DNA of 64,000 nucleotides from an uncultured Lentisphaerota bacterium (GCA_946413265.1 CAMKJU010000003.1:9087-73086), one strand, 5' to 3'; numbered from the stretch's first letter, positions 4,501 through 40,840 are shown. Made by a program: numbers and translations. Notes: a model not told the origin generated them from the sequence alone.

Positions 4501-7020
4501 GCCTCGACGCTGACCGGCGATTTGACGATCAAGACCGATAGTTCGGTGGCGTTCAACGTGAACGCGGCAACGAGCGTGAGCAACTTCTTTGTGCGCGCCG
4601 CGACGAACGCGGTCGTCACCATGACAGTCTCCGGTGGATCTTTTGTTTCCACAGAGGCGATCGTCAAGAGCGGCGTCCTGAAGCAGGGCAGTGCAAACGC
4701 GCTCGGCGCGACACCGAAGGTGACGGTCGAGGACGGTGGCACGTTCGACTTCGACGGCAAGGTGATTGGCGACGGCGAGGCTGTTTCCGGGAAGGTTGTG
4801 ACCGAGTTCCACATCGCGGGCGCGGGCGCGGGCGACTGGCCGTGGGCGCTCACGTCTTCCGAGAGCATGACAAGTGGCAAGAATATCTGTATGCTCCACT
4901 TGGATGCCAATGCGACGATTGGCGGCGCAAAAGAGCTGTGGATGGGGGTGCGCAACGGCGCCGGCTGGAGCGCTGCCAACAAAAACCTGAACCTCAACGG
5001 CTTTACGCTCACGAAGACGGGCACGGGGGCGCTGCAGATACGCAGGCCATACTCGAGAGACGAAGGTGCGATAGATGTCCAGGCCGGAACGTTGAGAGTG
5101 AGCGGCTGGAGCAATGCGAATGCGGCGTATGGAGCGAGCTGCGTCAGCAACGTCGCGCTTGTCGTGCATGAAGGTGTAACGGCGGAGAATAGCGTAGGCT
5201 ATCCTCTCTATTTCAAGGCGCTTGACTGTCGCGGGGGAACGCTGACGACCTCCGCAAACGCGTTCGGCATTTGGGAGACGCTGTCCGGGCATGGCACGAC
5301 GGCGAAGCTTTCGTTCGGCGCCGGCGCGACGGCGACGCTTGACGGCAACCTCACGGTGTCCAGCGCAATGACGGCTGCCGGGGCGCTCTCGCTGACGCGG
5401 GCGGCGGGCGTGGAGACGAACGTCACCGTCGCGGCGACGGGGACGCTGACGGCATCTGGCGCGATCACCGTCGGCGCGGGCGTGATATTCAACATTGGCG
5501 CCAATCGTCCGACGGCGACGCTAACGGTCGCGGACGGTGCGACGATAGTCCTACGCAAGAATGATGACCTTGAAGTGAACATCGTTCTCAATGGCACGGC
5601 TAGGCCGCAGAACGTCGTCGTTTACGACACGGACGGCATGACGGTAATTTCAGACCCGACCATCACATACAATTCCGGCGAAGGCACGTTGACCATACGC
5701 GTCGTCTCGCCACATTGGAGGAACAACGACGGCACGGGGTCGCTCGACAGCGCGGCGAACTGGAATGTGATGCCGGAGAGCGGCGACAAAGTCATTCTGG
5801 AACTTTCAGACGACACGTTGATCACTGTAACCAACACGTACAATCTGGGCGTCATGACCGTGACGGGCACGGGCAACGTGACGTTCACGGGCGATGGAAG
5901 CATTGGCGCGACGACGCTCGACGTCGCTTCCGGCCAGACGGTCGATACAAGCGGGAAGCTGACCGTGTCCGGTTTCACAGGCGCGGGAAATGTCGTTCTC
6001 ACGCCCGCCTCCGACACGCTCGCGATTTCGTCCGCCTCGACGCTGACCGGCGACATGACGATCAAGACTGACACCAACACGGCGTTCAGCGTGAACGCCG
6101 CGACGAGCGTCCGCAAGTTCTACGTACACGCCGCGACAAACGCGGTCGTCACCATGACGGTCGGCTCCGGCGGTTCGTTCAAGGCGACCTCTGAGGCGAT
6201 TGTGCAGCACGGCGTTCTGCAGCAGGGTAGTGCAACTGCGCTCGGGACGACGCCCAAGATCAGCGTCGAGGACGGCGGCACGTTTGACATCAATGCAAAG
6301 ACCATCCGGCAGGAGACGCCGATCTACATCGCGGGCGCGGGCGCGGGCGACTGGCCGTGGGCACTCGCCACGTCCTCTGGTGCGATGGCAAGCGGCAACT
6401 ACCTCTATGACCTTTACCTGACGGCGGACGCGACCATCGGAGCCGGGCAGTTCAAGTTGGGGCGCAGCAACAAGAATTCCTTCATCTATCTGAACGGGCA
6501 TACGCTCACCGCGAAATCATGGGTGACGCTCAGGTGCATCAACACAATGGCAGGCACACTCGACCTCCAGGCCGGCGCGACGTTCAACGCCTACAACAAC
6601 CTCAATAAGCAGACCGCATACAGGGGGACGACGATGATTGTCCATCAGGGATTCAACTACAACAACCAGACGGACAGGGAAGTGTACATCTCCTACCTGA
6701 AGATGTACGGTGGTACGATAGGTTACGGCTCCACCGCGAGAGATTTCGGCGTGTGGAACGAGCTTCACGGATACGGCACTGTCAAGAGGCTCGTGATGGG
6801 GTCTGGCGCCAAATACTACCCAGACGGCGCGCACTACCTCGAAGCGTCAGAAAAGCTTTCGGGCACGATGATCATCGACCTGGGCGACATTGACCTGGCC
6901 ACGGTAAAGCGCATCCCGCTCTTCAAGGTCGGAACGGCCGACATGCTGCCTGCGCCGGAGGCGTTGCAGTTCGTCGGTGATTACTATAGAAAGAAATGGC
7001 GGAGGGTTGATGGGGGTTGA
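1504..7020 (+). CDS. giant secreted C10 (streptopain/SpeB-like) cysteine peptidase-adhesin with signal peptide, I69-like propeptide, C10 domain, chitobiase-C-like and LamG-like domains and two PATR-like beta-strand repeat blocks; native 3' end displaced by prophage
   Basis: TTG start with hydrophobic N-terminus. Catalytic Cys context YPCGCVATAFAQTMRYF and His context DAGHSILTDGYG. ASIYYTLDGSTP, FYDFRFYDRAFTASEA and GTGNVTFTG.GSIGATTLDV repeats. The last ~13 codons (DYYRKKWRRVDGG) are prophage-end sequence. Confidence 0.85.
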   Translation: MKRGTKLFSMFATTMGVALSAFGAGVTGDDAKGAVTGWVRLREALGDEIDAELESVATYPGADGRGEFHVVSLKGGGYVITSGDTEITPILGYSKTGTFDADENSPMWALLTADVAARAAAVEASGGTTASVQQQGVRLAAASGGTTASVQQQDGGTASVQQQEGNADQWSRLMAAGKSGGKRLQAKMSSPPADLRVASFVRSKWGQSTATSGNGYTHNYYNNYTPNKYPCGCVATAFAQTMRYFEFPNTSVTPKTFTCKVSGTATDLTMQGGTYDWAHMPYVPREVTYDWNNVIGIAKLTSDAGISVCMSYKSGGSSSSSSRVGDSFVSTFGYSNAIMDYESGGVRGNTFKKNVIPSLDAKLPVILGIQGRPTGSATADAGHSILTDGYGYYNNQLYIHLNMGWSGSDDAWYTPADSDTGAIINSSGYDFTNITCTVFNIFTNATQYSVIASGRVLDQSGEPISGATVTAKYNSTTYATATSDAYGVYALILPPTSSTRTYTVNATCFGYTSTGARSVSASRTVGDDVIKDGNNYTGSFYNRASNSNSYDNDITMESANLPQAATPTSATAAEFGTSASVTLTCSTAGASIYYTLDGSTPTVSSTLYTGPITLTKTTTVKALAAKSGYARSDVFTRTFVSAAAIDEFYFRHDFSNGTRVFTAGEGSGLTRDQTSSTDSNAKAVEGPDGPGTAHHPGNVWGQFEDPTVLHGAWSAAMSLCMDATETGILVSFGRLNKADQKEVALLSSSTKSNFYFKVMTTDSNKAKSVENTFTVVTTNDLTVGFHSFVVAYKPASDVLNGIGTFDIYCDGVLVRTVSTDTPKLLGADVGGMQYCMFMSGGSDLTALGAVSSQANDAVAFYDFRFYDRAFTASEAAKYAAAYYPYDPNTPAQWTNNDGTGSFDNAANWANGRVPHSGDFIVNISGDTAIAVANTYNLGAMTVQGTGNVTFTGAGSIGATTLDVASGLTVDTCGKLTVTGFTGAGNVVLTPASGTLAISSASTLTGDLTIKTDSSVAFNVNAATSVSNFFVRAATNAVVTMTVSGGSFVSTEAIVKSGVLKQGSANALGATPKVTVEDGGTFDFDGKVIGDGEAVSGKVVTEFHIAGAGAGDWPWALTSSESMTSGKNICMLHLDANATIGGAKELWMGVRNGAGWSAANKNLNLNGFTLTKTGTGALQIRRPYSRDEGAIDVQAGTLRVSGWSNANAAYGASCVSNVALVVHEGVTAENSVGYPLYFKALDCRGGTLTTSANAFGIWETLSGHGTTAKLSFGAGATATLDGNLTVSSAMTAAGALSLTRAAGVETNVTVAATGTLTASGAITVGAGVIFNIGANRPTATLTVADGATIVLRKNDDLEVNIVLNGTARPQNVVVYDTDGMTVISDPTITYNSGEGTLTIRVVSPHWRNNDGTGSLDSAANWNVMPESGDKVILELSDDTLITVTNTYNLGVMTVTGTGNVTFTGDGSIGATTLDVASGQTVDTSGKLTVSGFTGAGNVVLTPASDTLAISSASTLTGDMTIKTDTNTAFSVNAATSVRKFYVHAATNAVVTMTVGSGGSFKATSEAIVQHGVLQQGSATALGTTPKISVEDGGTFDINAKTIRQETPIYIAGAGAGDWPWALATSSGAMASGNYLYDLYLTADATIGAGQFKLGRSNKNSFIYLNGHTLTAKSWVTLRCINTMAGTLDLQAGATFNAYNNLNKQTAYRGTTMIVHQGFNYNNQTDREVYISYLKMYGGTIGYGSTARDFGVWNELHGYGTVKRLVMGSGAKYYPDGAHYLEASEKLSGTMIIDLGDIDLATVKRIPLFKVGTADMLPAPEALQFVGDYYRKKWRRVDGG
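1887..1993 (+). repeat. three tandem in-frame copies of the 24-nt motif GACAGCAAGCGTACAACAGCAAGG (starts 1887, 1941, 1971)
   Basis: Exact copies read directly from the sequence. Spacings of 54 and 30 nt are multiples of 3. Each copy is translated as TTASVQQQ in the propeptide-to-catalytic-domain linker. Confidence 0.95.
4170..4850 (+). repeat. intragenic duplication, copy 1 (PATR-like block)
   Basis: Protein segment QWTNNDGTGSFDNAANW...GAGAGDWPWAL recurs at 5707..6365, with long near-identical nucleotide runs (acgggcaacgtgacgttcacgggcg...). Confidence 0.85.
5707..6365 (+). repeat. intragenic duplication, copy 2 (PATR-like block)
   Basis: HWRNNDGTGSLDSAANW...GAGAGDWPWAL is colinear with 4170..4850. 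Confidence 0.85.
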
Positions 7021-7050
7021 AGAGGCTTGATGAGGATTGAAAAGAGTTGA
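7001..7050 (+). repeat. five tandem 10-bp phased repeats nnnGnTTGA at the prophage left end
   Basis: ggagGGTTGA tgggGGTTGA agagGCTTGA tgagGATTGA aaagAGTTGA, with exact 10-nt period, starting ~24 nt inside the junction. Confidence 0.9.
7026..7044 (+). repeat. left-end transposase-site-like inverted repeat (CTTGATGAGGATTGAAAAG)
   Basis: Matches the reverse complement of 40700..40717 (TTTGATTCACGATTGAAG) as TTGAT-n3/4-GATTGAA. Confidence 0.55.
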
Positions 7051-7327
7051 TTTTACTGGGGAAAATGGCGGATGTGGCGGGGAGAGGACTGGATTAGCGC
7101 GGGGAAAGCGCATTAGGGTTGCGCGGAAAGTTTTGGTTTGGGTTGGGGCGTGCTGGGTGTCGCGGTGGTGTGTAGGGCTATTTTGTTTGTCTCGCAGAAC
7201 CTGGTCAAGGCGTTCCAGATGCGATCGTGTGCGGCGCGTTCCATTGGCGCGGCTTCCATCGGTGGATCGCGCCACAGCGTTGCGAAAAGGGTTGTGTTGC
7301 GCTGCTCAAACGCAATCTCGATGCGCA

Positions 7328-7735
7328 TCATTTTGAAGGTGCCTCCAGGCTTTCTGGATCGGTAAGTTCGACGCGGCCGCCGAGTTCGATGAAGAAATGG
7401 GACTCGTCAGGCTCGCCCCATTCTGGGTGCCGACGCTTTGTGGCCGTGGCGTCGACATAGGCATACGGCATTAGACCGCTGGTGGTCTCAATTCCCATGC
7501 ACCAAAAAGCCATGCGCGGAGCATCTTTCGCGTAGCCACGGCGGAACTCTACGATCGGCGTTGTGCTTTCGGTGAACTTGCGGTCCCAGTTGTGAAGCCG
7601 CTTCCGCCAGTAGAGCGTGGGGAGCCGGTATTCCTCGCGCTTCTCGCCGGAGGCGATCATATCGAACCACTTGCCCTTCAGGACGAGCGGAAGGATGGAA
7701 CACTGGCTTCGCGGTAGTTTCAACAATTCAGCCAC
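7328..7735 (-). CDS. ASCH-domain-like protein
   Basis: LPLVLKGKWFDMIASGEKREEYR resembles the ASCH core. Lies in the minus-strand phage operon. Confidence 0.55.
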   Translation of the reverse strand: MAELLKLPRSQCSILPLVLKGKWFDMIASGEKREEYRLPTLYWRKRLHNWDRKFTESTTPIVEFRRGYAKDAPRMAFWCMGIETTSGLMPYAYVDATATKRRHPEWGEPDESHFFIELGGRVELTDPESLEAPSK

Positions 7736-7739
7736 TCTA

Positions 7740-8018
7740 TCATTCTCCGGTTGTATGCTCCAATCCTGTCTCGCGAGCAGAACGCTCTGCCGTCACGCCT
7801 CTTTTTCTTTCTTCGCACACTCTCTGAAAGATGTCCGACAACGCGCTCCATTCGTGGTCCATTCGCCCAGAAGCGTCACAACAGTTCCAGACCCGCGCGA
7901 AATACATCCGCGTCAGACCAGACAGCAGCCCGTAGAACTCGTTTTCGCTTAGTGCTTTGATGCACAGTTCACCGGCGACCATCTTGTTAATCATTGCTTG
8001 TTTCTCTTGGTCTGTCAT
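7740..8018 (-). CDS. hypothetical phage protein
   Basis: ORF sits tightly between the ASCH and portal genes on the same strand. Confidence 0.5.
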   Translation of the reverse strand: MTDQEKQAMINKMVAGELCIKALSENEFYGLLSGLTRMYFARVWNCCDASGRMDHEWSALSDIFQRVCEERKRGVTAERSARETGLEHTTGE

Positions 8019-8081
8019 TACCTATCTGCCTTTCTTGCGAGTTGGAGCTGTTTTTGGGGAAAGGCCGAGCGAGCTCGGCCA

Positions 8082-9665
8082 TCAATGCTTTTTATTGGTT
8101 GCCGATGGGCGGGCGGAGCGGGCGCCGGCCATGGAATAGACATAGAGCGCCTTTTCGATCACGTCGGCGGCGTTGGAGGGGTTGTGCTGGGATATCCATG
8201 CTTCGACGCGGCGGATACAATCCTCCGGCGAGGTGGACGCGGCGATGACGGACTGGAGCGGCGCAAGGTCGGCGGCGAAGGCCCGTGCAAGGTCGTCGGC
8301 GCGGGTGGCGGCCGGGCGGTCTTCAACGGAATCGGCTGCGGAGAGGGGGACGGGCTGGGTGACAGCAAGCGTACGACAGCAAGAGGGAACGGGCTCGGTG
8401 GCCCGTCCATCAGCTGCGGCCACGGAGGGCCGCCACCCCGATAAGGGAGCCGAAAAGGGAAGCATCGGGGATTGGGGGATGGCCGCGCGGCGGATGCCGA
8501 AGCCGATGCGCTCGGAAAGGGTATTGAGGGCGTCATCATCCGGCTCGAGGCCGGCTTCATGGAGCTTGCCGATCACGGTGAGGGTGGCGGTCTGCTCGCG
8601 GGCGGATTCTGAGCCGAAGAGTATCTTCGGCGCGCGGCCCGTGTGGCCGTTGATCGTCAGGAGCTGCTCGAAGAGCTGGCTGCGGAGCGTCGCGGCGAGG
8701 GACTTAGCATCGGCTTTTCTGATGTCATCCCGCACTTCTCCCTGGAGGTTCGCGGTGCCTCCGCCGAGCTCTCCCGTGGGTGAAGCGTTGGAGGACAGGG
8801 TTTGTCCGACAATGAGCTTCGATATCTCCTGGTTGCAGATGGTGATGAAGCGCTCGTGGCTGTTGGATGAGTCGCCGTTCGCGGCCTGGACGATCTCGAC
8901 CTCGGTGTTTTTCGCGACGACGATCGCGCCGAGGCGCACGGCAAGCCGGAACGCGCGCTCGAGCGTGGCCTTGCCCTTATCATCGGAGTACTTGCCCTTC
9001 AGGAACGGGACGCCGAAGCGCTCGAGGAGATCGGCCCACCACTGGCGCGACATCGTGCGCAGCAGCCACCAGAAAAGGATGGAGCGCATCGCGCCGCCCC
9101 AGTTGTCGGGTACGGGCATGAGGTCGCAGCGGTGGACGATGTAGCGTTCCGGCGTGACCTCGTGGGAGGTGTGGAGCGGCGTGCCGGTGTTGTCCACGTC
9201 GAAGATGTGCATCGCGCCCTGCGAGTAATCGAGGAGCTGGTAGTGGACCGGCACGAGCGCCTTGAGCGCGAAACCGCCGCCGGGAAGCGGCGCGAACACC
9301 TTCTCCACGACGGCGACGGGGAAGAGCGTGGCGTTCATCAGCCACGACTGCGCATCCGCGAAGGTGGCGTTGTCGATCACGTCGTCGCAGAGGTCGCTCG
9401 CGGCGACGTCGGCGGGGTCGTTTTTCTTGAACGGGATGACCGTGACCGGATCGCCGAGGACGGCGATCTTGCGCTTCATGAACTCGGAGCGCACCTGGTT
9501 GTCGTTGGAGATGACGTCGCGGTAGAGCGCGAAGAGCTCGCGGGTGTCGCCGTTCTGCGCCTGATCGACGATGCCCATGAGACGGTCTGCGGTGAGGTAG
9601 CGCACGAGGCTCGGCAGCTCGCGGCGGGGATCGAGGACGGTGATCTGGTCGGTGTATTCCTTCAT
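8082..9665 (-). CDS. Mu gp29-like portal protein (DUF935 family)
   Basis: The N-terminal LVRYLTADRLMGIVDQAQNGDTRELFALYRDVISNDNQVRSEFMKRK pattern is typical of DUF935 portals. Lies directly downstream of terminase. Confidence 0.85.
   Translation of the reverse strand: MKEYTDQITVLDPRRELPSLVRYLTADRLMGIVDQAQNGDTRELFALYRDVISNDNQVRSEFMKRKIAVLGDPVTVIPFKKNDPADVAASDLCDDVIDNATFADAQSWLMNATLFPVAVVEKVFAPLPGGGFALKALVPVHYQLLDYSQGAMHIFDVDNTGTPLHTSHEVTPERYIVHRCDLMPVPDNWGGAMRSILFWWLLRTMSRQWWADLLERFGVPFLKGKYSDDKGKATLERAFRLAVRLGAIVVAKNTEVEIVQAANGDSSNSHERFITICNQEISKLIVGQTLSSNASPTGELGGGTANLQGEVRDDIRKADAKSLAATLRSQLFEQLLTINGHTGRAPKILFGSESAREQTATLTVIGKLHEAGLEPDDDALNTLSERIGFGIRRAAIPQSPMLPFSAPLSGWRPSVAAADGRATEPVPSCCRTLAVTQPVPLSAADSVEDRPAATRADDLARAFAADLAPLQSVIAASTSPEDCIRRVEAWISQHNPSNAADVIEKALYVYSMAGARSARPSATNKKH
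8361..8383 (+). repeat. 24-nt motif copy (GACAGCAAGCGTACGACAGCAAG) inside the portal gene, antisense to it
   Basis: Read directly from the sequence. Translated on the minus strand as SCCRTLAVT. Flanked by a 14/16 direct duplication (8346..8361 vs 8385..8400). Confidence 0.95.
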
Positions 9666-9681
9666 GGGGGCCTTTCTTTCT

Positions 9682-9711
9682 GGCCGATCACAGATCGGCC
9701 ATCAAATCTAT
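9682..9711 (-). repeat. hairpin boundary element, copy A (GGCCGATCACAGATCGGCC + ATCAAATCTAT)
   Basis: 8-bp stem GGCCGATC/GATCGGCC with a 3-nt loop. Lies between the TerL stop (9708) and the portal start (9665). Confidence 0.85.
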
Positions 9712-11360
9712 GAGTTGAGGATTGGGGTGGTGGGGCCGTCGTCGGGGGGCGGGAGCATGGTGAGGCGGGAGGTGGCGGCTGAAGCCGCCCGCTCCGATAT
9801 TGACGCAACGCGGGCGCCGATCTGCACCGCGTCGGCCTTGGCCTCCTCGGTGCCTTCGATGATGGCGTGGAGGGAAAGCTTGGTGCCGTCGAAGAGGTCG
9901 CCGTGGCGGCCGGTGGCGGCGTCGAGCGAGTTGTCGAAGCCGCCTTTCATCTTCTTGACGAGCCGGAAGTCGTCTTTTACGTTGAAGTCGTTCGGGACGT
10001 CGATCTGGCTTTCGTCGATCGCGTTGACGAGCAGCTGGCCGAGGTAGGTCTTGTAGAGGACTCGCTCGCCCATGAAGTCGAGCTTTTCGGAGTTCTTGAC
10101 GAGGATGACGTCGCAGACGCCCTCGAGCTCCTCGCGCACCTCGGTGGCCCAGTACACCTCGCTCGTGGCGTCGATGGCGACGGCCTTTGCCTTGAGGCGC
10201 GTCGCCAGCTCGCGGAGGATGGCCTTCGGCTTCTTGGGGTCCTTTGACTTGAAGGAGAGTATCAACTTCGTCGCATAGCGCCCGTCGATGCGCTGGGTTA
10301 CGGCGATGCCAAAGGGGTTGGACTTCTCGCCCTCCGTTGTGGCGGGGTCCGCGCCGATGCCGACGGGGCCTTTCGAGAGGTCGAAGAGGTGCTCCCAGCC
10401 GGGCGGCAGATCATCCTCGGCATAGACGCACCCGGCGCGCTCGCCGCGCTCCATCGCCTCCATGAGCTTGATGAGGCCGACGGCAGCAGATCCGCCGGTG
10501 ATGAAGAGGCAGCCGTAGTTGCGGTCCCAGGCGTCCTTGTCGAACGCGCGGCGGCGCGACTCCTCGGGCGTGACCGGCTGGGCGGTCTTGGTGTCGTAGA
10601 GCGCGACGCCGTCGGCGTAGGCGTCCCAGGCATCGACGCGCAGACAGGTGACGCCCTTGACGGATTCATAGACGTTGCCGGACGGCGAGACGGGGAACTG
10701 CATTCCCGGCGGGGGCGCAAGCTGCTCGAAGGAGTAGTGGGCGTCGTCGGGCGGCGGCGTGGTGAGGAGTAGAATGCGGAACTGCGGGTTCGAGGCGACG
10801 ATCGGCTCGACCGCCTCCCAGACGTCCTTCCAGTTGCCGATGCGGCCCACCTCGTCGCACATGAGGTCGCCGGTCTCGCCGACGGTGTCCGGACGGAGCG
10901 CGACCACCTTGGTGCGGGAGTAGGAGGAACGTGTGTGGTAGTAGCGGAACTCCAGGCGCGAATGCTCGAAGAGGTCGGCGAAGTCGTCGTGCGTGAGGCC
11001 GCTCACGCTGCGGCCGGTCTTGTCGTCGGCGAGCTGCACCTTGCCTTCCTCGAGGCGCGCCATCGCCGCCGAGATCGCCTTCTCGAAGACGGCGGCCTCC
11101 TTGCGCACGATCTCGCGCGAGAGATTGAGCTTGGCGGAGCCGAAGATGACGGTGTGGTCGCGGAGCTTCATCATCTTCTTGAGCGCGACGTTCGCGCAGG
11201 TGGTGGTCTTGCCGTACTGGCGGCGCGCGATGAAGCCGAGGAGGCGGTACTGCTCGACGAGCTGGAACAGGCGGCGCTGGCCCGAGCGCATCTGGATGAC
11301 GGGGGACTGGCCGATCACAGATCGGCCATCAAATCTATTGGCGGTGGCTGGGGATGGCAT
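9708..11360 (-). CDS. terminase large subunit
   Basis: Walker A context FIARRQYGKTT. Positioned between the DUF3486 small subunit and the portal. Start chosen at MPSPATANRF (GAAAGG RBS), with an alternative start at 11291. The 165-aa upstream extension in the ORF track was rejected. Confidence 0.75.
   Translation of the reverse strand: MPSPATANRFDGRSVIGQSPVIQMRSGQRRLFQLVEQYRLLGFIARRQYGKTTTCANVALKKMMKLRDHTVIFGSAKLNLSREIVRKEAAVFEKAISAAMARLEEGKVQLADDKTGRSVSGLTHDDFADLFEHSRLEFRYYHTRSSYSRTKVVALRPDTVGETGDLMCDEVGRIGNWKDVWEAVEPIVASNPQFRILLLTTPPPDDAHYSFEQLAPPPGMQFPVSPSGNVYESVKGVTCLRVDAWDAYADGVALYDTKTAQPVTPEESRRRAFDKDAWDRNYGCLFITGGSAAVGLIKLMEAMERGERAGCVYAEDDLPPGWEHLFDLSKGPVGIGADPATTEGEKSNPFGIAVTQRIDGRYATKLILSFKSKDPKKPKAILRELATRLKAKAVAIDATSEVYWATEVREELEGVCDVILVKNSEKLDFMGERVLYKTYLGQLLVNAIDESQIDVPNDFNVKDDFRLVKKMKGGFDNSLDAATGRHGDLFDGTKLSLHAIIEGTEEAKADAVQIGARVASISERAASAATSRLTMLPPPDDGPTTPILNS
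11309..11338 (-). repeat. hairpin boundary element, copy B
   Basis: Identical 30-mer to copy A. Lies 17 nt upstream of the alternative TerL start (11291), which places it inside the first 17 codons of the longer TerL model. Confidence 0.85.
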
Positions 11361-11373
11361 GGCGGGCGGCCTT

Positions 11374-12634: not shown

Positions 12635-12722
12635 GAGGTAGGATCCTTTTCTGTCCTTGCGGGGGGAATGATACCACGGGAGGGGGCGGGAGCGCCCCGC
12701 GCCGTGCGGATGATGCGGTACT

Positions 12723-17273: not shown

Positions 17274-17524
17274 TGAAACTGCGCAAGATTGACGTTCTGC
17301 TCGCAGAGCACAAGCCTCTGTCCGTAGAAGAAGGCAATGTCAAGAAGCTTGGCAGATATTACTACGAGGTCGAATGCCCGTTCTGCGGGAAAAAGAACCT
17401 TGTCTTCTTCAGGAACTTCTGGAAAGGCACGAGGTGCAAGAACAAGGACTGCCGCGCCATGTTCGACCGTTGCAACAGTGTGGCCTGGAGAGACATGGTG
17501 CCAGTGAGTGAGGCTAGAGCCTAA
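17270..17524 (+). CDS. zinc-ribbon protein
   Basis: CPFCGKKN...CKNKDC. Confidence 0.5.
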   Translation: MMKLRKIDVLLAEHKPLSVEEGNVKKLGRYYYEVECPFCGKKNLVFFRNFWKGTRCKNKDCRAMFDRCNSVAWRDMVPVSEARA

Positions 17525-17547
17525 ACAACAAGCGGACAACAGCAAGG
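17524..17547 (+). repeat. 24-nt motif copy (variant aACAaCAAGCGGACAACAGCAAGG) starting at the stop codon of 17270..17524
   Basis: Read directly from the sequence. Followed by AAAAGGAACCGAAG and the ATG at 17562. Confidence 0.85.
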
Positions 17548-17561
17548 AAAAGGAACCGAAG

Positions 17562-19058
17562 ATGAAACAGGAAAAGCCGCACAAGTTCTACGTCGGCGAG
17601 GGGTACGGCATCTGGGAGATGGACGGCGAAACCCACCGCCGCTTCCCCGACGTGTTCTACCGCGCGAAGCCCGGCGACTCGGCCGGCAAGTACACGATCG
17701 GCGACATGGCCGTCATGAACCAGCCGACAACCAAGAAGCGGTTCGGCATGTTCGTGATCGCGAACGTGGAGAGCGGCGACTTCGGCGGCACGGGGCTGAA
17801 GTACAAGCTCACGGTGCATCCCTACGGGACTCCGGAGGAGATCAGCGGACCGAAGCCCGCCGCCCCGATACAGCAAGCGGACAACAGCAAGGAAAAGGAA
17901 CCGAAGATGAACACTGCCAGTGGCGGACGGTGCAGATTCACAGATGAAAATGGATTCTGCACGAACGAAAACATGCAGGGCGGCGGATTCCGGTGCTTCG
18001 GCGCAGGGTGCGAATGCAGGGAGCCGATTCGCGGACCGAAGCCCGCCGCCCCGATACAGCAAGCGGACAACAGCAAGAAAGAACCGAAGATGAAAAGACC
18101 TACCTACAAGATGCAGCGCATCAAGCTCGCGGACTGCAAACCACACGCCGACGCGGAGGCCTACTCGGCCTCCACCGAGGACCGCGCCGCACTCGGCAAC
18201 TCAATCGAGGAGACCGGGGTGCTTTCGCCGATCGCCGTGGTGCCGGACGAGGACAGCAAGCGTACAACAGCAAGCAACGACGCCGAACCCCAGAAGTGGT
18301 TCGTGATCGACGGCATCGGGCGCATGAACGCCCTCATCGCCGCCGGCGAGACCGAGACCGACGCCCAGGTTTTCGACCTCGGCGATCTGAGCGTGGCCGA
18401 GTTCGTGGTGTGCAAGAACGCCATGATGCGCAAGGTCACAACCGGCACGCGCGTGATGGCATACCTGAAATGCCATGAACGCGAAGTACTGGCCGCTGCG
18501 GACCCGGAGAAGTACCAGGGCCGTAAAGAAAGCAAGTGGCGCAACAAGGTGGCTGCGGTTTCACGTGAAACCGCAGCCGACGAAAAGGGTTGGGGCGCGA
18601 AGGAGATAGCGGAGCGCATCGGGGTGTCGAAGAACGACGTGCTGGCGGGGATTGAGCTGCTGAAGGAGGTGAGCGGGGAGACAGAAAGCGTACAACAGCA
18701 AGGGAAGTACGTGCAGCTGGACCTCTTCGAGACGATGGACTCGGTGATGCACGGCGAGACGCCGATCAGGCGGTGGAAGGCGGCGGCGAGCGGCAAGGTG
18801 AGCAAGGTGGGCGGCAAGGCGGCCGCCGACTACGTGGGCATCGGCGCGCGCACGATGGTGAGCCTCATCGGGCTGTTCGAGAACTGGCAGACGGTCCCGA
18901 TGGAGAGCCGCGGGCCCATCGTCGAGCGGTTCAAGCTGGCGTTGGAGGCCGCGCCGGAGGATTTCAGGGCGGTGCTGGAGGATGTGGTTGGATCTCACGC
19001 AGAGGCGCAGAGAGGCAGAGAGCGCAGAGGGAAGTTCCGCAAAGGGACGCGGTGGTAG
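17562..19058 (+). CDS. ParB-like nuclease-domain protein with two stop-less N-terminal modules (candidate internal starts at 17907 and 18090)
   Basis: C-terminal part IKLADCKPHADAEAY...LGNSIEETGVLSPIAVVP...WFVIDGIGRMNALIAAG follows a ParB/Srx-like pattern. The modules are joined by the repeated GPKPAAPIQQADNSK(E)KEPKM linker. Confidence 0.65.
   Translation: MKQEKPHKFYVGEGYGIWEMDGETHRRFPDVFYRAKPGDSAGKYTIGDMAVMNQPTTKKRFGMFVIANVESGDFGGTGLKYKLTVHPYGTPEEISGPKPAAPIQQADNSKEKEPKMNTASGGRCRFTDENGFCTNENMQGGGFRCFGAGCECREPIRGPKPAAPIQQADNSKKEPKMKRPTYKMQRIKLADCKPHADAEAYSASTEDRAALGNSIEETGVLSPIAVVPDEDSKRTTASNDAEPQKWFVIDGIGRMNALIAAGETETDAQVFDLGDLSVAEFVVCKNAMMRKVTTGTRVMAYLKCHEREVLAAADPEKYQGRKESKWRNKVAAVSRETAADEKGWGAKEIAERIGVSKNDVLAGIELLKEVSGETESVQQQGKYVQLDLFETMDSVMHGETPIRRWKAAASGKVSKVGGKAAADYVGIGARTMVSLIGLFENWQTVPMESRGPIVERFKLALEAAPEDFRAVLEDVVGSHAEAQRGRERRGKFRKGTRW
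17847..17909 (+). repeat. extended ~60-nt unit (GGACCGAAGCCCGCCGCCCCGATACAGCAAGCGGACAACAGCAAGGAAAAGGAACCGAAGATG), copy 1
   Basis: Contains the 24-nt motif core at 17869..17892 plus an SD-like AAGGAAAAGGAA and an in-frame ATG. Confidence 0.9.
18033..18092 (+). repeat. extended ~60-nt unit, copy 2 (3-nt shorter)
   Basis: Motif core at 18055..18077. Ends in an ATG that starts the ParB-like module. Confidence 0.9.
18252..18274 (+). repeat. 24-nt motif copy, in CDS frame 1 (DSKRTTAS)
   Basis: Exact GACAGCAAGCGTACAACAGCAAG. Confidence 0.95.
18680..18703 (+). repeat. 24-nt motif copy (GACAGaAAGCGTACAACAGCAAGG), in CDS frame 2 (TESVQQQG)
   Basis: One mismatch to the consensus. Confidence 0.9.
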
Positions 19059-24556: not shown

Positions 24557-24723
24557 ATTGCAATTGGCGGCCTGGGCCATGGAAAATCAGGAAATGGGGA
24601 AGCCGAGGGCGTGCGCACGCCGCAGGCCGTGAATCCGTGGCGCAAGCGGGGACGCGCTCGAATACTACCAGCAAACCGTGGCGCTCCGGAAAGACGGAGA
24701 ATTTGCTATACTAGGAGACACCG

Positions 24724-26658: not shown

Positions 26659-26701
26659 CTAACTGATGATATAAACACTTCCTTTTTCAGTGCCGCACAG
26701 T

Positions 26702-26733
26702 CCGCACGGGCGCAAGCCCGCGCGGCGTTTTTT
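26702..26733 (+). terminator. rho-independent terminator
   Basis: CCGCACGGGC-GCAA-GCCCGCGCGG (10-bp stem, 1 mismatch) followed by CGTTTTTTAT. Confidence 0.7.
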
Positions 26734-26752
26734 ATATAAACTGTGCGCCGTT

Positions 26753-27790
26753 ATGGGCAAGCCAGACAAAGTGATACTTCTTCGCACAACCGGCGTCGCC
26801 GTGAGCCTTTCGGCTGACGCGGCGAAGCTGCCGCGCCGGATCAAGGTGCTGAACTGGGGCGACAACCCGAACTGCCACGGGAAGCGCGTGAACGTGGGCG
26901 CGCTCTTCGTGAAGTGCCTGAACGCCGACACCTATCCCTACCGCAAGGTGGCGCTCGACTTCGAGCACAACACCTTCCCCGGCACGGCGGCGTACAAGGA
27001 GTCGAAGGAGCCGCGTCCCGTCGCGGGCTTCGGCACGATCGAGGCCGTCGAGGGCGACGGCGTGTACATCACGATGTCGAGCTGGACTCCGGACGGCGAG
27101 AAGATGGCGGCGAACTACGCCGACGTCTCGGCCGGGGCCGTGACCGACAAGGAAGGCAACCTCGTGGCCGTGGCGAGCGTGGCGCTGTGCCGCGCCGGCG
27201 CGGTGGACGGCATGGATTTCGTGGAGGCGCCGCTGAGTGGCGGTATCTCTTCCGCGCTGAGCGGAATCATCAACAACCAGGAAGGCGGGCTGAAGCCCGC
27301 CGCTCCGATACAGAAAGGAAATGCAATGGACTACAAGGCATTGCTATTGAAGCTGCTGGGGCTTGGCGAGGACGCCACGGACGAGGCCATTCAGGCCGCG
27401 CTCGATGCGGCCGGCAAGAAGCCCACGCAGGAGGAACAGGACGCGGCACTATCGGCTGCGGTGAAGACTGCTGTCGCGGAGGCCGTGAAGCCGATCGAGG
27501 AGAAGGTGGCCGCGCTTTCGGCGGCAGCCGTCGCCCACGAGAAGGCCGACCTCATCGCCGAGGCCGCCCGCGAGGGCAAGGTGATCGCGCTCGGCGCGGA
27601 CGCCATCGGGAAGATCACGGTCGAAGACCTGAAAGCCACGATCGCGAAGACGCCCGTGACGGTGCCGCTCAACGCGAAGACGCCGACGAACATGAAGGAG
27701 AATGCCGCCGAGGGCGATGTGCCCGAGGAGCTGCGCCAGATCGCGCTCAACTGCGGGGTGAGCCCGGATATCTTCAAAGCGGGGAAGTGA
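26753..27790 (+). CDS. Mu gpI-like head protease with nested scaffold (internal start at 27326)
   Basis: The RIKVLNWGDNPN...VALDFEHN pattern matches the Mu-like prophage I protein. The C-terminal Ala/Glu-rich helical part begins at MDYKALLLKLLGL, after an SD-like AAAGGAAA. Confidence 0.8.
   Translation: MGKPDKVILLRTTGVAVSLSADAAKLPRRIKVLNWGDNPNCHGKRVNVGALFVKCLNADTYPYRKVALDFEHNTFPGTAAYKESKEPRPVAGFGTIEAVEGDGVYITMSSWTPDGEKMAANYADVSAGAVTDKEGNLVAVASVALCRAGAVDGMDFVEAPLSGGISSALSGIINNQEGGLKPAAPIQKGNAMDYKALLLKLLGLGEDATDEAIQAALDAAGKKPTQEEQDAALSAAVKTAVAEAVKPIEEKVAALSAAAVAHEKADLIAEAAREGKVIALGADAIGKITVEDLKATIAKTPVTVPLNAKTPTNMKENAAEGDVPEELRQIALNCGVSPDIFKAGK
27292..27313 (+). repeat. copy of the 5' half of the extended unit (GAAGCCCGCCGCTCCGATACAG) before the nested scaffold start
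   Basis: Matches 17852..17873 and 18038..18059. Translated as KPAAPIQ. Confidence 0.8.
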
Positions 27791-27812
27791 CAGCAAGCGT
27801 ACAACAGCAAGG
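27789..27812 (+). repeat. 24-nt motif copy overlapping the protease stop, followed by AAAGGCAAAACATG
   Basis: tGACAGCAAGCGTACAACAGCAAGGaaaggcaaaacATG(27824). Confidence 0.95.
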
Positions 27813-27823
27813 AAAGGCAAAAC

Positions 27824-28264
27824 ATGAAAAAACTGATTGCAATGGCCGCGATGGCGGCAATGGCGCTCGCGGCATTCGCGGGCGAGCACGACACGCCGCA
27901 GGTGAGCGGCGACTACGCCCAGCTCGCGGCGGGCGAGGCGGTCTACGCCGGCAACATCGCAGCCGTGGGCACGAACGGCTGCGCCTACGCGGTGAACACC
28001 TCCGCCGTTGGCGGCACGCTCACCGTGTGCGGGGTGTTCCTGCACAACGCGGCGAAAGGCGAGAACGTGACGGTGAAGCGCGGGGGATTCATCCTCGAGA
28101 ACGCGACCGGCGCCGGCGCGATCGCGAAGAAGGACATCGGCGCGACGGCCTACTCCGTGGCGACGAACCCCTGGACCGTGACCAAGACGAGCGGCACGAA
28201 GACCGTCGGCAAGGTGGCCGACGTGCGCGACGACGGCAAGGTCGTGGTGGTGGTTGGCCGGTAG
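27824..28264 (+). CDS. DUF2190-like head protein (decoration or auxiliary) with signal-peptide-like N-terminus
   Basis: Lies between the scaffold and the major capsid. Gly/Ala/Val-rich beta pattern. N-terminus MKKLIAMAAMAAMALAAFAG. Confidence 0.5.
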   Translation: MKKLIAMAAMAAMALAAFAGEHDTPQVSGDYAQLAAGEAVYAGNIAAVGTNGCAYAVNTSAVGGTLTVCGVFLHNAAKGENVTVKRGGFILENATGAGAIAKKDIGATAYSVATNPWTVTKTSGTKTVGKVADVRDDGKVVVVVGR

Positions 28265-28273
28265 CGGCGAGGA

Positions 28274-28297
28274 AACAGCAAGCGTACAACAGCAAGG
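28274..28297 (+). repeat. 24-nt motif copy in the major-capsid leader
   Basis: aACAGCAAGCGTACAACAGCAAGGaaaggcaaagacATG(28310). Confidence 0.95.
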
Positions 28298-28309
28298 AAA
28301 GGCAAAGAC

Positions 28310-29248
28310 ATGAACATCACTGCAGCAACCCTGGACGCGCTCTTCAAGACGTTCCAGACCAAATTCACCGAGGCGCAGAAGGCCGCGCAGACGCGCGTGA
28401 CGCCGAACGACCTCCTTCCCGAGGACATCGCCCTCGCCTTCACCGGCGCGGGCTCCGCCACGCAGCACAGCTGGCTCGAGCAGCTGCACGGCATCCACGA
28501 GTGGGTGGGCGAGCGCGTCTTGAACAACGCGAAGCTCGGCAAGCTCACGGTCGTGAACCGCGACTTCGAGAACACGATCAAGGTCTCGCGCAACGAGATC
28601 GAGGACGACCAGTACGGCGTCTACGCGCCGCTGGTGGGCATGATGGGCGCGGACGCCGAGAACCTGTGGAAGAAGCTCGCGATCGAAGCGCTCCTCGGGA
28701 ACGGCGAGTGGGCGGACGGCAACCCGTTCTTCTGCTCGGGCCGCGTGCTCGGGGAGAGCACGTTCACGAACGCGGTGACGACCTCCTTCAGCAAGGCCGC
28801 CGTCGAGGCCGCCATCGCGGCGATGCGCGGCTGGAAGCTCTACGGCGGCGAGCCGGGCGAGATCCGCCCGGACGTGCTCCTCGTGGGCCCGTCGCTCGAG
28901 GCGGCGGCCAAACTGATCTGCGAAGCCGACCTCGTGGCGGACAGCGGCACGACGGTGAGCAACGTGAGCCCGGCGAAGGCGCTGAAGGTGCGCGTGTCGC
29001 AGTCGCTCGTGGGAGACCACGCGAACGAGTGGTACGTGCTCGGCGACAAGAACGGCGTGAAGGCCGTGGGCATCCAGAAGCGCAAGCTGCCGGTGCTGAC
29101 GCGCAAGGACCGCGACGAGGACACGAACGTGTTCATGACGAACGACTTCCTCTACGGCGTCCACGCGCGCGGCGAGGGCTTCCTGACTCTTCCGTTCCTC
29201 GCCTACAAGGGCGGCGCGGCGGCCGTGGCAGCCTGGGAGGAGAAGTAA
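28310..29248 (+). CDS. Mu gpT-like major capsid protein
   Basis: HSWLEQLHGIHEWVGERV...VVNRDFENTIKVSRNEIEDDQYGVY is characteristic of the gpT family. Confidence 0.9.
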   Translation: MNITAATLDALFKTFQTKFTEAQKAAQTRVTPNDLLPEDIALAFTGAGSATQHSWLEQLHGIHEWVGERVLNNAKLGKLTVVNRDFENTIKVSRNEIEDDQYGVYAPLVGMMGADAENLWKKLAIEALLGNGEWADGNPFFCSGRVLGESTFTNAVTTSFSKAAVEAAIAAMRGWKLYGGEPGEIRPDVLLVGPSLEAAAKLICEADLVADSGTTVSNVSPAKALKVRVSQSLVGDHANEWYVLGDKNGVKAVGIQKRKLPVLTRKDRDEDTNVFMTNDFLYGVHARGEGFLTLPFLAYKGGAAAVAAWEEK

Positions 29249-36172: not shown

Positions 36173-36183
36173 AAAGGCCCATC

Positions 36184-38307: not shown

Positions 38308-39374
38308 AGAAACCAACTGTTACGCTTCTCGCAGTCATGGCGTGGACGTCGTGTGTAATGGCGCTGCCAGCGCCCCACGACCAGATATCGGCATACATCT
38401 GGGGGCTGGGAGCCGGCAGGCCGGGACACGTCGGGGTCGGCTTTGGCTACAAGCAGCGCGATCACGGCATAGTACTGGACGAGTTTCCGACGGAGCAAGA
38501 CAGGTACTTCTCGTACAACAAGGAAGTGTTGCAGTTCAGGTTGAACGTTGAGAACAGAGGTGCGTCAAACGAAAGGCCTGTCTACGCAAATCCGCAGAAT
38601 GTACAAGATACCGGAAAAGGCGAGAGGCAGGACATCACCGTCGAGCGGATCCTTGAGAGGTGCTACGGCGAAAAGTACGAGGAACAGATGATCCGCGCTC
38701 TGTCCGCCCGCGCGCTCCAGTTCGGCGGGGCGATGAACGAAATCGCGATGCTGGCGAAGGTGAACCCGGTGAACATACCCGTGCTCCGACCGGGAACGCC
38801 GCGCATACCGTACAAGGTGTTCGCGGCGCGATACAAGATAATCAAGGATCTCTTTCCGGTGCGGGGTGACATGCTGTACATTTCCGGGAGACAGCAATAC
38901 TGCGAGACAAATGCTTTCGACGACCTCGTGATCCGCTACAAGACTGCATACGGAGTAACGCCGACGTTCCAGTCATGGGTGGAGGGGGCGTGCAGGTCGA
39001 ACGACATGAACCGGGTTTCGTACGCGCTCATGCCGCTGGGAATCGTCGTACACAGGGCGGAGGACTACACGGAGGAGTTCGCGCACTTCGTCAACGTGGG
39101 CGACCCGTACGGGGGCCGCGACTTCGAGGAGTTCAAGGCCGCCTACCACGGCGCGAAGGTTGACGCGTGGAAGATGGGAATCGATCTTGGGGTGTCTGGC
39201 GGGTGGGCGCAATATATATCCGCGCTCACTGCTGACGAGGACTGGGCCGCCGCCTCGGCCCTGCGCCTGCCCGCCAACACCCTTCTATTTCTCCAGCTCT
39301 ACGTGTCGGGAGGGGGCAGCGCGGAGTTCCGTTCTTGGTGCGAGTCGGACGCGATGGGGAGGATGATACTATGA
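38304..39374 (+). CDS. hypothetical protein with signal peptide
   Basis: MKKPTVTLLAVMAWTSCVMALPAP. 4-nt overlap with the upstream gene. Confidence 0.5.
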   Translation: MKKPTVTLLAVMAWTSCVMALPAPHDQISAYIWGLGAGRPGHVGVGFGYKQRDHGIVLDEFPTEQDRYFSYNKEVLQFRLNVENRGASNERPVYANPQNVQDTGKGERQDITVERILERCYGEKYEEQMIRALSARALQFGGAMNEIAMLAKVNPVNIPVLRPGTPRIPYKVFAARYKIIKDLFPVRGDMLYISGRQQYCETNAFDDLVIRYKTAYGVTPTFQSWVEGACRSNDMNRVSYALMPLGIVVHRAEDYTEEFAHFVNVGDPYGGRDFEEFKAAYHGAKVDAWKMGIDLGVSGGWAQYISALTADEDWAAASALRLPANTLLFLQLYVSGGGSAEFRSWCESDAMGRMIL

Positions 39375-40444
39375 GCGAGACGGTTGAATGCAGGAATGCG
39401 AGCCCCAGCAAATATCGCGCAAGGAGGTCACGGGCCTGGGGCGCGGCATTCGCGACGGCTACACCAGAAAGGCAGCCGTCAAATGTCATGAGTTCAGTGT
39501 TGAAAGGAATTATGAAGAAATATCCGTTGCTTACGGCGGAAGAAGAATCAGAAATGATTGCGAGGGAGCCGGTGACGTGGCGTGAGTTCCTAGTGCTTCA
39601 CAACGCAAGCCTGGTGTTGGAAAAGGCAAAGAAATGGTCTGGCTTATACAGATATCAGGACGTAGACGACATGATCCAATGCGGCCTTATGGGTTTGTGG
39701 AAGGCTGCGAAAAAATTTGAGCCGACGCGCGGTCTAAGGTTCAGTACGTACGCTGGGTATTGGGCAGAACATGAGATGAAAGAGCGAGCTTGCCGAGTAT
39801 CGATTGAAGTAGACGCAAAAAGTGATTCGCTGAACAGAAAGACAGAAATGGACGACGAAGAAGGCGGGGAAATGCTCGACTACATCCAGCCGGTGATAGA
39901 AGCGGGATCAAAAGAGAAAAGCCTCGAGGAGTGGCTGGAGTTACGTGACGAAGTGGAGGTGGTGCGAGAAATCATCTCCAGGTTGCAGTTCCGCAACGAG
40001 AGGCATAGGGCTTGCTACATTAGACTTCGGCAGTTTGGACAAGAACCGGAAGCGCAAAAGGTTGTCGCAAGGGATTGCGGCTTGAGCCGTCAGCGAGTTA
40101 ATTTTATAGTGGGTCGAATAGACGGCATTGTCAGAAGCGAGGTGAGACGGCTGGACCGAATGCCAAAAATACAGACGACGAACTGGGACAGGATGACCAG
40201 TGTGAAGAGAAGTAGTGCAAGAATGCAGACGACATACGACCGCAACCTAGCCATGTTGATTGCGTACGAGCGCTACAAGCTGGGCATAAGAAAATTGGCT
40301 CCACTGATGGTACGGGAGGAGCGGGGACCAGAAGTGAAAAGCGAGGGCTTTAAGGTGAAAAGGCTCGTCGTGAAAGGAGAAAAGTTTGTCTTCAAGGGCG
40401 GAAAATGGGTTCCTGCGCCCAAAGAGGAGGATTACGGATACTAG
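39371..40444 (+). CDS. phage-encoded sigma-70-family factor with ~110-aa basic C-terminal extension
   Basis: Region 2: LLTAEEESEMI...DDMIQCGLMGLWKAAKKFEPTRGLRFSTYAGYWAEHEM. Region 4: QKVVARDCGLSRQRVNFIVGRI. Alternative starts at 39491 and 39518. Confidence 0.75.
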   Translation: MSETVECRNASPSKYRARRSRAWGAAFATATPERQPSNVMSSVLKGIMKKYPLLTAEEESEMIAREPVTWREFLVLHNASLVLEKAKKWSGLYRYQDVDDMIQCGLMGLWKAAKKFEPTRGLRFSTYAGYWAEHEMKERACRVSIEVDAKSDSLNRKTEMDDEEGGEMLDYIQPVIEAGSKEKSLEEWLELRDEVEVVREIISRLQFRNERHRACYIRLRQFGQEPEAQKVVARDCGLSRQRVNFIVGRIDGIVRSEVRRLDRMPKIQTTNWDRMTSVKRSSARMQTTYDRNLAMLIAYERYKLGIRKLAPLMVREERGPEVKSEGFKVKRLVVKGEKFVFKGGKWVPAPKEEDYGY

Positions 40445-40454
40445 GAGGTTGTAA

Positions 40455-40547
40455 ATGTGTGAATGGATTCTAGGCCTCAATAACATCAACGATTGCGCCA
40501 TTACAACAGCACTTCGGCCGATTTCGGCTGAGTGGCTGCGGTTGTGA
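40455..40547 (+). CDS. small ORF (30 aa) at the prophage right end
   Basis: Strong AGGAGG 6 nt upstream of the ATG. No recognisable similarity. Confidence 0.3.
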   Translation: MCEWILGLNNINDCAITTALRPISAEWLRL

Positions 40548-40699
40548 TATTTTTCACTCTTCCCGCCAGGACCTCCACGTACCCCCCCAAGGTTCTCTTG
40601 AAAGGCGAACCGTGACAGGCACAGTGGGAATCTTTTTCTTGCGGGATTCCCTCGTGAATCCCTTGCGAATCCCAAGCGATTCATCCCTTATCACATATT

Positions 40700-40717
40700 C
40701 TTCAATCGTGAATCAAA
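40700..40717 (-). repeat. right-end transposase-site-like inverted repeat (rc TTTGATTCACGATTGAAG)
   Basis: Inverted relative to 7026..7044. TTGATTCAC...TTGAAG also resembles the Mu attL L1 site as I recall it. Confidence 0.5.
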
Positions 40718-40741
40718 CCCCAACCATTACATTTGCGCCGT

Positions 40742-40840
40742 TACATCGGCGGCATACCTAAGGGCTGGGAGCTTAGGACGTTGAAGGAAGGCTACGGCTA
40801 CGCCCTTGTGCGCCGGCAATTCATGGTTATCGTCAAGTAG
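40742..40840 (+). pseudogene. displaced 3' remnant of the C10 peptidase-adhesin gene (…GGIPKGWELRTLKEGYGYALVRRQFMVIVK*)
   Basis: In the same codon phase as 1504..6977 across either candidate junction. The tail aligns with the C-terminus of 44563..49368 (…GLYLDRRGFILIVR*). Confidence 0.8.

Follow-up and report, generated by a model that had tools for sequence, protein, structure and literature searches.

Transposable phages such as Mu and the Faecalibacterium phage Mushu are temperate, have genomes of 33-39 kb with 5'-TG...CA-3' ends, and insert at many sites by DDE transposition. They encode a transposase with an AAA+ partner, a portal of the gp29 type, and a head protein of the gp30 (F) type. 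Insertions of Mu and Mushu are flanked by target-site duplications of 5 bp, those of B3-type phages by duplications of 6 bp, and a "5/6-bp scar" has been used as a search criterion for transposable phages (PMC8705779, PMC5883640). A DNA stretch of 64,000 nucleotides from an uncultured Lentisphaerota bacterium (GCA_946413265.1, CAMKJU010000003.1:9087-73086; hereafter the window, meaning the whole stretch analyzed, with positions counted from its first base) contains an element that shares these features with Mu and Mushu but has a duplication of 4 bp. The favored explanation, with a probability of roughly 0.93, is that DDE transposition placed a Mu-like phage of 33,768 bp (6978..40745) within the final 90 nt of a gene of about 1854 codons, which encodes a secreted multidomain C10 cysteine protease. 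The host is regarded as a rumen-type member of the Kiritimatiellota.

Interruption of the protease gene

The open reading frame (ORF) at 1504..7020 on the + strand follows the host frame to ...LPAPEALQFVG and continues as D-Y-Y-R-K-K-W-R-R-V-D-G-G up to a TGA stop (7018..7020). The frame 40742..40840 translates as YIGGIPKGWELRTLKEGYGYALVRRQFMVIVK followed by a stop. Its codon 1 (Y) is phage end and its codon 2 (I) spans the last phage base and a copy of TCGG, such that the host remnant is 40746..40840, consisting of the TCGG copy and then 30 codons and a stop from 40748. TCGG occurs at 6974-6977 and 40746-40749, and TTAC at 6981-6984 and 40741-40744. The element between the two TCGG copies extends from 6978 to 40745 (33,768 bp) and has the ends 5'-TGATTAC...GTTACA-3'. 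When 6977 is joined to 40750, a single open frame of 1854 codons results, which ends in ...EALQFVGGIPKGWELRTLKEGYGYALVRRQFMVIVK and a stop (at the nucleotide level, ...GTTCGTCGG followed by CGGCAT...). The target TCGG sits within the codons GTC-GGC (Val-Gly), and the host protein has lost 29 residues and gained 13. An earlier note on this DNA had described a gene split by a prophage, with its tail about 33.8 kb downstream, and an ORF whose host sequence stops at ...EALQFVG and is followed by 13 phage-derived codons. All of these positions were reproduced, as was the reading of the downstream frame; the size of the tail was revised from about 32 codons to 30 codons and a stop.

One genome per GTDB species was scanned with the downstream metallophosphoesterase, which led to an uninterrupted locus (L002; CADCOC010000017.1 of the metagenome-assembled genome (MAG) RUG14821, an uncultured bacterium). 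The metallophosphoesterase protein of L002 is 94% identical to that of the window, and at the nucleotide level the locus is likewise about 94% identical. The features that define the split are as follows.

1504..6977, + strand: host-derived 5' part of the protease gene, 1824 codons and 2 nt by translation, collinear with the L002 orthologue
6974..6977, unstranded: left TCGG copy of the 4-bp target-site duplication, present as a single copy in the empty site (L002 9883-9886)
6978..40745, + strand: transposable (Mu-like) prophage, 33,768 bp, 5'-TG...CA-3', missing in L002
6979..7020, + strand: 13 phage-encoded codons (DYYRKKWRRVDGG; codons at 6979..7017) and a stop, fused to the cut host ORF
40746..40749, unstranded: right TCGG copy of the 4-bp target-site duplication
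40748..40840, + strand: orphan 3' end of the protease gene, GGIPKGWELRTLKEGYGYALVRRQFMVIVK and a stop (30 codons and stop), the first Gly codon being shared with the duplication

In a blastn comparison of L002 with the window, L002 9757-9886 aligns to window 6848-6977 (95.4%) and L002 9883-11929 aligns to window 40746-42792 (94.2%). These two flanking alignments overlap by exactly 4 nt, namely TCGG, and no L002 sequence matches window 6978..40745. The L002 gene is one continuous ORF of 2313 amino acids (aa; 3036..9977) with the C-terminus ...PEALQFVGGIPKGWELRTLKEGYGYALVRQQFMVIVK. The three sites compare as follows.

Empty site (L002): gcagttcg TCGG cggaatcc
Left junction (window): gcagttcg TCGG tgattact
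Right junction (window): gccgttaca TCGG cggcatac

With the phage and one TCGG copy removed, the gene is in frame again, and its end is nearly identical with that of the intact orthologue. Between the orphan tail and L002, 8 of 93 nt differ (91% nucleotide identity). Seven of the eight codon differences are synonymous, counting a TAG/TAA change of the stop, and the remaining one changes R to Q; this divergence therefore arose under selection, before the split. Each of the eight homologues with a complete C-terminus can be aligned through the junction, the closest two (L002 and the metagenome homologue P0009) without gaps. P0009 reads through the junction as ...EVQFVGGIPGGWHL... (or ...EVQFVGGIPGGWHLEPSREGFGYDLVHSGFLIFFR), and the orphan tail aligns with the C-termini of P0001-P0010. 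Judged by these alignments, the match of the tail to the protease C-terminus is far beyond chance. The earlier note had proposed to look for an uninterrupted allele joining 6977 to 40746 and had made its interpretation depend on homology of 40742..40840 to the C-termini of this protein family. L002 provides the former, with the TCGG overlap, and the eight complete homologues provide the latter.

Transposition module

The following features of the prophage are related to its transposition.

6994..7072, + strand: left-end repeats (AAATGGCGGA at 6994 and 7063), candidate transposase-binding sites of putative function
7002-7041: array of GGNTTGAWG with a 10-bp period at the left end, candidate transposase-binding sites
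19083..20816, + strand: transposase with a helix-turn-helix N-terminus, a MuA/TnsB-type catalytic core and a beta-barrel (phrog_310, E 2.5e-12; predicted fold)
21513..22463, + strand: MuB/TniB-like AAA+ transposition ATPase (phrog_296 "DNA transposition protein", E 1.8e-19; PF13401, PF05621)
40494..40743, - strand: right-end repeats (TAATGGCGCA at 40494-40503 and TAACGGCGCA at 40734-40743), inverted relative to the left-end copies

The motif WAAYGGCGSA has eight matches in the window, compared with 1.4 expected. Two copies lie near each end in inverted orientation, giving four within about 250 bp of the ends, and these are candidate transposase sites. For the ATPase, the AAA_22 match is above the Pfam cut-off, and the TniB match is weak (E 7e-4) and below it.

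The transposase has 184 metagenome relatives, of which the named ones are labelled Kiritimatiellia. An AlphaFold2 model built from 30 of these relatives (predicted local distance difference test (pLDDT) score 79) was compared with known structures by Foldseek. It matches the TnsB strand-transfer complexes 8aa5 and 7svw and the MuA transpososome 4fcy at E of about 1e-13, and the MuA core 1bcm with a template modeling (TM) score of 0.70. In an alignment of 30 homologues, the motifs W-D-D-A-S, V-x-E-G-G-[SA]-W-Q, and N-Q-K-L-[VI]-E are invariant. At the position where the second catalytic Asp is expected (the hh-D-N-G motif after beta-4), all 30 have Glu. By analogy with the order W..D.T / hh-D-N-G / E, together with predicted secondary structure, this suggests the triad D182-E263-E296 (D-E-E) with Glu263 as its second member, the last two catalytic positions being about 33 residues apart.

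Phage termini, target-site duplication and alternative explanations

The empty site, together with three independent contigs, sets the ends of the phage genome at 6978 (5'-TG) and 40745 (CA-3'). L026 carries a related phage elsewhere (portal 91% identical); its sequence matches the window to ...CTATAGTA(G/A)TCA and diverges at the next base, immediately after ...TAGTCA at the left end. L029 (ena:ERZ12289769:NODE_22294) is a contig of an independent assembly, and its last bases, ...CTATAGTAATCA, read ...TAATCA, which is exactly the left terminus of the phage. L027, a JGI contig, carries a near-identical phage at yet another site (sigma factor gene 99% identical). It was found by a JGI metagenome scan with the sigma factor, which returned one further, distant locus. 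It matches the window to ...GCGCCGTTACA (...GTTACA) and continues beyond the right terminus with ACGCC..., compared with TCGGC... in the window. Because these three contigs keep T6978 and A40745 at other sites or at a contig end, both bases belong to the phage, and the duplication is therefore exactly 4 bp and perfect. Its length is neither the 5 bp of Mu nor the 6 bp of B3-type phages, and a literature search for 4-bp duplications in Mu-like phages found none. Of the two junction models in the earlier note, the one with TCGG is thus the correct one.

Phages of this lineage occupy four differing sites, in the window, L020, L026, and L027, and the flanks of the latter three are unrelated. In L020 (ena:ERZ28018966:k141_97327), the flank is a HisKA_3 gene, with the portal-side junction at 12294/12295 (...GTGTCA followed by GTCTGCGC). 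The called HisKA_3 ORF runs about 50 nt into the phage end (region 12242-12300), possibly a second instance in which a phage of this group has cut off the 3' end of a host gene.

Other placements of the junction were considered. The earlier note had described an imperfect 5-bp duplication, and a canonical Mu-type duplication of 5 bp, of which one copy mutated later, would read TCGGY if the phage began at G6979, or RTCGG if its last base were C40744. Each of these registers matches at four of five positions, and Mu and Mushu make duplications of this length (PMC8705779, PMC5883640). However, T6978 is the last base kept before divergence in L026 and the last base of L029, and A40745 is kept in the near-identical phage of L027, such that the 5-bp alternative needs a non-canonical end plus a point mutation exactly at the junction; it is very unlikely. 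The other model in the earlier note has the host gene run to 6984 and resume at 40745, with TTAC duplicated. TTAC does occur at 6981 and 40741, and this join is also in frame, but it would add the residues DYIG, which are present neither in the L002 orthologue nor in P0009. The latter reads FVGGIP without a four-residue insert, and in the empty site of L002 GTCGG is followed by CGG with no GATTACA in between. In addition, TGATTAC and GTTACA are common to phages at other sites. The TTAC model is refuted by the L002 sequence and is practically untenable.

The window seemingly derives from a metagenome-assembled contig, and its left junction was seen in the window only, the contig from another sample stopping at the phage end; phage and host contigs may thus have been misjoined around a gene that is not really interrupted. 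Such a chimera is highly improbable, since it would not yield a 4-bp duplication that restores the frame, and the two junctions carry matching copies of that duplication together with complementary halves of one codon-phased gene. Moreover, the right junction is also present in two other assemblies (L001 and L019), one from ENA (99.99% identity) and one from Logan, and across the whole of its length L001 is 99.99% identical to the window, which speaks against an artefact of assembly. Some temperate phages integrate site-specifically near gene 3' ends and supply replacements for the codons lost; this element could likewise have entered through an attachment site in the gene, by means of an integrase. 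In this phage, however, the 13 phage-encoded codons are unlike the lost C-terminus, the shared core is only 4 bp, and related phages are found at unrelated sites. Among the phage proteins scanned there was no integrase, and the transposase and MuB-like ATPase were found instead. This explanation is hardly credible.

Several points weigh against integration of a Mu-like phage by transposition. Both junctions were seen for one insertion only, which makes the 4-bp duplication a single observation for the lineage, and for the left host junction the other assembly breaks at the phage end. The transposase assignment rests on the PHROG match and the predicted structure: the protein has no match to the Pfam rve model, none by tblastn among 50,697 GenBank phages, and none by phmmer among PDB sequences. 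GemA and Mor, which are listed as conserved in the proposed Saltoviridae (PMC7761591), gave no Pfam match among the early and middle ORFs scanned (those other than the small ORFs at 14.4-17.5 kb).

For integration of the Mu-like phage by DDE transposition, the following steps are proposed. The MuA/TnsB-fold transposase (19083-20816) would bind the inverted repeats near both ends and expose the terminal CA-3' hydroxyls, and the MuB-like ATPase (21513-22463) would bring in the target DNA. Strand transfer would then take place at TCGG with a 4-nt stagger, and gap filling by host repair would produce the duplication.

As a side observation, L001 comes from the same sample as L029; in L001 the right junction assembles into host DNA, while L029 stops at the left terminus. 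The break in L029 is consistent with heterogeneous left flanks in that sample, owing to active transposition, packaging, or mixed strains. Virion DNA of transposable phages carries variable host DNA at both ends, and for this trait the L029 break is at most indirect evidence.

Prophage gene content and comparison with known elements

Other features identified in the prophage are listed below.

8082..9665, - strand: Mu-type portal, gp29-like (PF06074, E 1.9e-60; phrog_113)
9708..11315, - strand: terminase large subunit (phrog_2, E 6.5e-15, residues 181-665 of a 715-aa ORF)
17508..19058, + strand: ParB-like protein of the early region (phrog_4715, E 3.4e-12)
22513..23199, + strand: DUF3164 protein (PF11363, E 2.8e-29; phrog_846)
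24724..25980, + strand: Mu F-like minor head protein, gp30 (PF04233, E 9e-23; phrog_220)
26690-27790, + strand: head maturation protease (phrog_328)
Between the protease and the major head protein, within 26690..29248, + strand: small head protein (phrog_1731)
28310-29248, + strand: major head protein (phrog_371)
31228-32652, + strand: tape-measure-like protein
39371..40444, + strand: sigma-70-family factor, the last phage gene (PF04542; TIGR02937 above cut-off)
40525-40555: terminator-like hairpin 3' of the sigma factor gene

The coding frame indicated by G+C content at third codon positions (GC3) switches at about 11300, which places the true start of the terminase gene near this position; by GC3, the portion of the 715-aa ORF upstream of it is noncoding. 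The block of terminase and portal genes is inverted beside the left end (6978-12640), separated from the genes for Mu F, protease, and capsid (24556-24724 compared), and the transposase gene lies 12 kb from the nearest phage end. The related prophage L020 (1-12294) has the same gene order beside its end. An inversion of this block after the insertion was therefore rejected, and the inverted arrangement is a trait of the lineage. When IMG/VR was scanned with portal and sigma factor sequences, no relatives were found; a homology query combining the two returned portal matches only, and an exact-sequence look-up of the portal returned nothing on record.

The description of the prophage as Mu-like in the earlier note holds at the level of gene content (portal, F, and ATPase) and transposase fold, the model superposing on the MuA core; it does not extend to the target duplication, which is 4 bp and not the 5 bp of Mu. 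Other differences from Mu include the transposase, with its apparent Glu at the second catalytic position and its lack of rve and GenBank phage matches, the inverted terminase-portal block and the distance of the transposase gene from the end (both also seen in L020), and a sigma-70-like factor as the last gene, with GemA and Mor undetected in the ORFs scanned. Because no Mor-type regulator was detected, the sigma-70-family protein may act as a late-gene activator.

Phages of the B3/D3112 type, which have Tn552-related transposases and include Leptospira prophages, resemble the phage in their early-region DUF3164 and ParB-like genes and in leaving a short duplication as a transposition scar. 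However, B3-type duplications are 6 bp long (PMC8705779), and there is no sequence-level match between the transposases. The nearest cultured relatives of the portal are Pseudomonas Mu-like phages, at 24-29% identity. Regarding the TnsB-TnsC pair of Tn7 and CRISPR-associated transposons (CAST) and the TniA-TniB pair of Tn5053, likeness is seen in the TnsB complexes among the best structural matches, the weak TniB match of the ATPase, and the catalytic spacing of about 33 residues. These elements are transposons without virion genes, whereas the module described here lies within a complete tailed-phage genome. Tn7/CAST and Tn5053 elements make 5-bp duplications.

The core event is an ordinary insertional disruption of a gene by a prophage, unusual only in the 4-bp duplication. 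Beyond this, it is tentatively suggested, with less confidence than a balance of probabilities would call for, that the phage represents a distinct, undescribed lineage of Kiritimatiellia transposable phages with at least 184 transposase relatives. This lineage would be marked by an invariant Glu where the second catalytic Asp is expected, a 4-bp stagger compared with the 5 or 6 bp of all described phages, and an inverted terminase-portal block at the left end; the same tentative proposal holds that the clade-specific tag removed from the host protein (described below) is possibly an undescribed sorting signal. If other insertions confirm the 4-bp length, the 5/6-bp search rule would miss such prophages. 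Current understanding is not overturned; the phage lineage is modestly new, and together with the 4-bp duplication, the possible D-E-E transposase, and the shared C-terminal tag it adds modest interest. Almost no phages are known from Kiritimatiellota, and these results document transposable phages in this phylum with exactly mapped ends.

Two other regions of the prophage may be mentioned. The sigma-70-family gene (39371-40444) points toward the host flank. Three large genes at 34595-39374 (525, 707, and 356 aa) encode proteins with signal-peptide-like N-termini and have GC3 values of 0.71-0.77, compared with 0.85-0.95 for the head genes. Searches of Pfam, PHROGs, and NCBIfam assigned none of the three to a family; receptor binding is one possible role for them, and an accessory (moron) function another.

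The disrupted protease and its C-terminal domain

The protease consists of, in order, a signal-peptide-like N-terminus, a Spi/I69 prodomain (PF13734), a Peptidase_C10 domain, a CarboxypepD_reg domain (PF13620), a CHB_HEX_C_1/Fn3_assoc domain (PF13290), and two beta-rich modules of about 460 aa. The Peptidase_C10 match (PF01640, residues 219-413) scores 128.3 bits against a cut-off of 26. The translation contains the regions ...YPCGCVATAFAQ... and ...DAGHSILTDGYG...NMGWSG, in which GCVATA and GHS...NMGWSG are taken to correspond to the catalytic Cys and His regions of SpeB. The PF01640 and N-terminal PF13734 matches are shared with peptidase family C10, i.e., streptopain (SpeB) and the Bacteroidota C10 proteases with Spi/I69 prodomains. 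The protein differs from these in its size (about 1850 aa, and 2313 aa in L002), its two or three beta-rich modules of about 460 aa, and a family-specific C-terminal domain of about 95 aa that is not found in classical C10 proteases. The earlier note had called the gene a C10 peptidase-adhesin. The peptidase part of this name is borne out by the Pfam score, and the adhesin part is putative. Unlike type V autotransporter adhesins, the protease has no autotransporter C-terminal beta-barrel translocator among its Pfam matches and ends in the domain of about 95 aa. An exact-sequence look-up of the truncated ORF returned nothing on record.

Out of 1.84 billion proteins, only 97 representatives were matched by a profile of the last ~98 residues. 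The long ones are mostly 800-3100 aa in length, and the match nearly always ends at the last residue, which indicates a dedicated C-terminal domain of about 95 residues. The phage cut the gene about two thirds along this domain. AlphaFold predicts a beta-rich, solenoid-like fold with a free tail for the final 257 residues (pLDDT 82.5), and in this model the lost part corresponds to two strands and the unstructured tail of eight residues. A Foldseek search of this module against the PDB gave no significant match (best E 0.9, in a list mostly of beta-helix proteins), and neither Pfam nor NCBIfam has a model for the domain or for the terminal tag.

This tag is a heptapeptide pattern, G/x-[FLV]-x-[IVFM]-x-[IV]-[RK]-COOH, that ends all close homologues of the protease; within the protease family its conserved form is ...F-x-[IV]-x-[IV]-[RK]. 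It also ends the following neighboring gene product and the product of a large LamG protein gene at 44536-49368 (...GFILIVR).

40864..42906, + strand: Tat-signal metallophosphoesterase, the downstream host gene, ending in ...LTIVVR and starting 23 nt after the protease stop

In the window, the tag is encoded at 40813-40837, 42886-42903, and 49345-49365. In addition, it ends unrelated secreted proteins in Kiritimatiellae/Verrucomicrobia MAGs (L002, L009-L012, L014, L016, and L017). The tag may be a clade-specific sorting or anchoring signal, and its occurrence in several secreted proteins provides a lead for protein sorting in Kiritimatiellota; a literature search for a C-terminal sorting signal of Kiritimatiellota found none. 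The similarity to the neighboring large protein, the paralogous surface protein that the earlier note had drawn on, is limited to distant repeat modules (32% identity over 251 aa) and this tag.

As translated, the truncated protein (1824 host residues and 13 phage-encoded ones) keeps the protease domain and the repeat modules. It is probably mis-sorted or unstable, because 29 residues of the C-terminal domain, including the conserved tag, have been lost and 13 phage residues gained. The spacing between the protease and metallophosphoesterase genes is operon-like, and the spacer in L002 is similarly short. A polar effect on the metallophosphoesterase gene is likely, because the gene now lies behind 33.8 kb of phage DNA and the terminator-like hairpin, cut off from the upstream promoter. 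Given that both copies of the duplication are intact, that the cut ORF is otherwise open, and that the differences in the tail are almost all synonymous, the insertion is recent. On the host side, a giant secreted protease has undergone a clean natural knock-out, or at least a truncation, and the intact sister allele permits direct comparison.

Strain differences and neighboring genes

Between the I69 prodomain and the C10 domain (1880-1990, residues ~125-165), the protease has an imperfect tandem peptide repeat, GGTTASVQQQ, in three copies. The intact L002 protein has 2313 aa, compared with 1854 aa in the protein rebuilt from the window, and its middle region is about 460 aa longer (window 4230-5690 compared with L002 5627-8598). 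The N-terminal 909 aa are 87% identical between the two and the last 458 aa are 70% identical, with the last ~70 residues being almost identical. The size difference of about 460 aa corresponds to approximately one repeat module. These patterns suggest mosaic evolution or variation in repeat number between the protease alleles.

Further indels between the strains (window 42913-44547 compared with L002 11929-13153) are found beside the insertion site. An ORF of 522 aa in the window (42962-44530) is absent from L002, and the metallophosphoesterase gene of L002 carries about 1.2 kb extra, encoding 1097 aa compared with 680 aa. The gene upstream of the protease (7-1497) encodes a middle domain resembling hydrazine synthase alpha (PF18582, E 5e-19) and a weakly matching cytochrome c domain.

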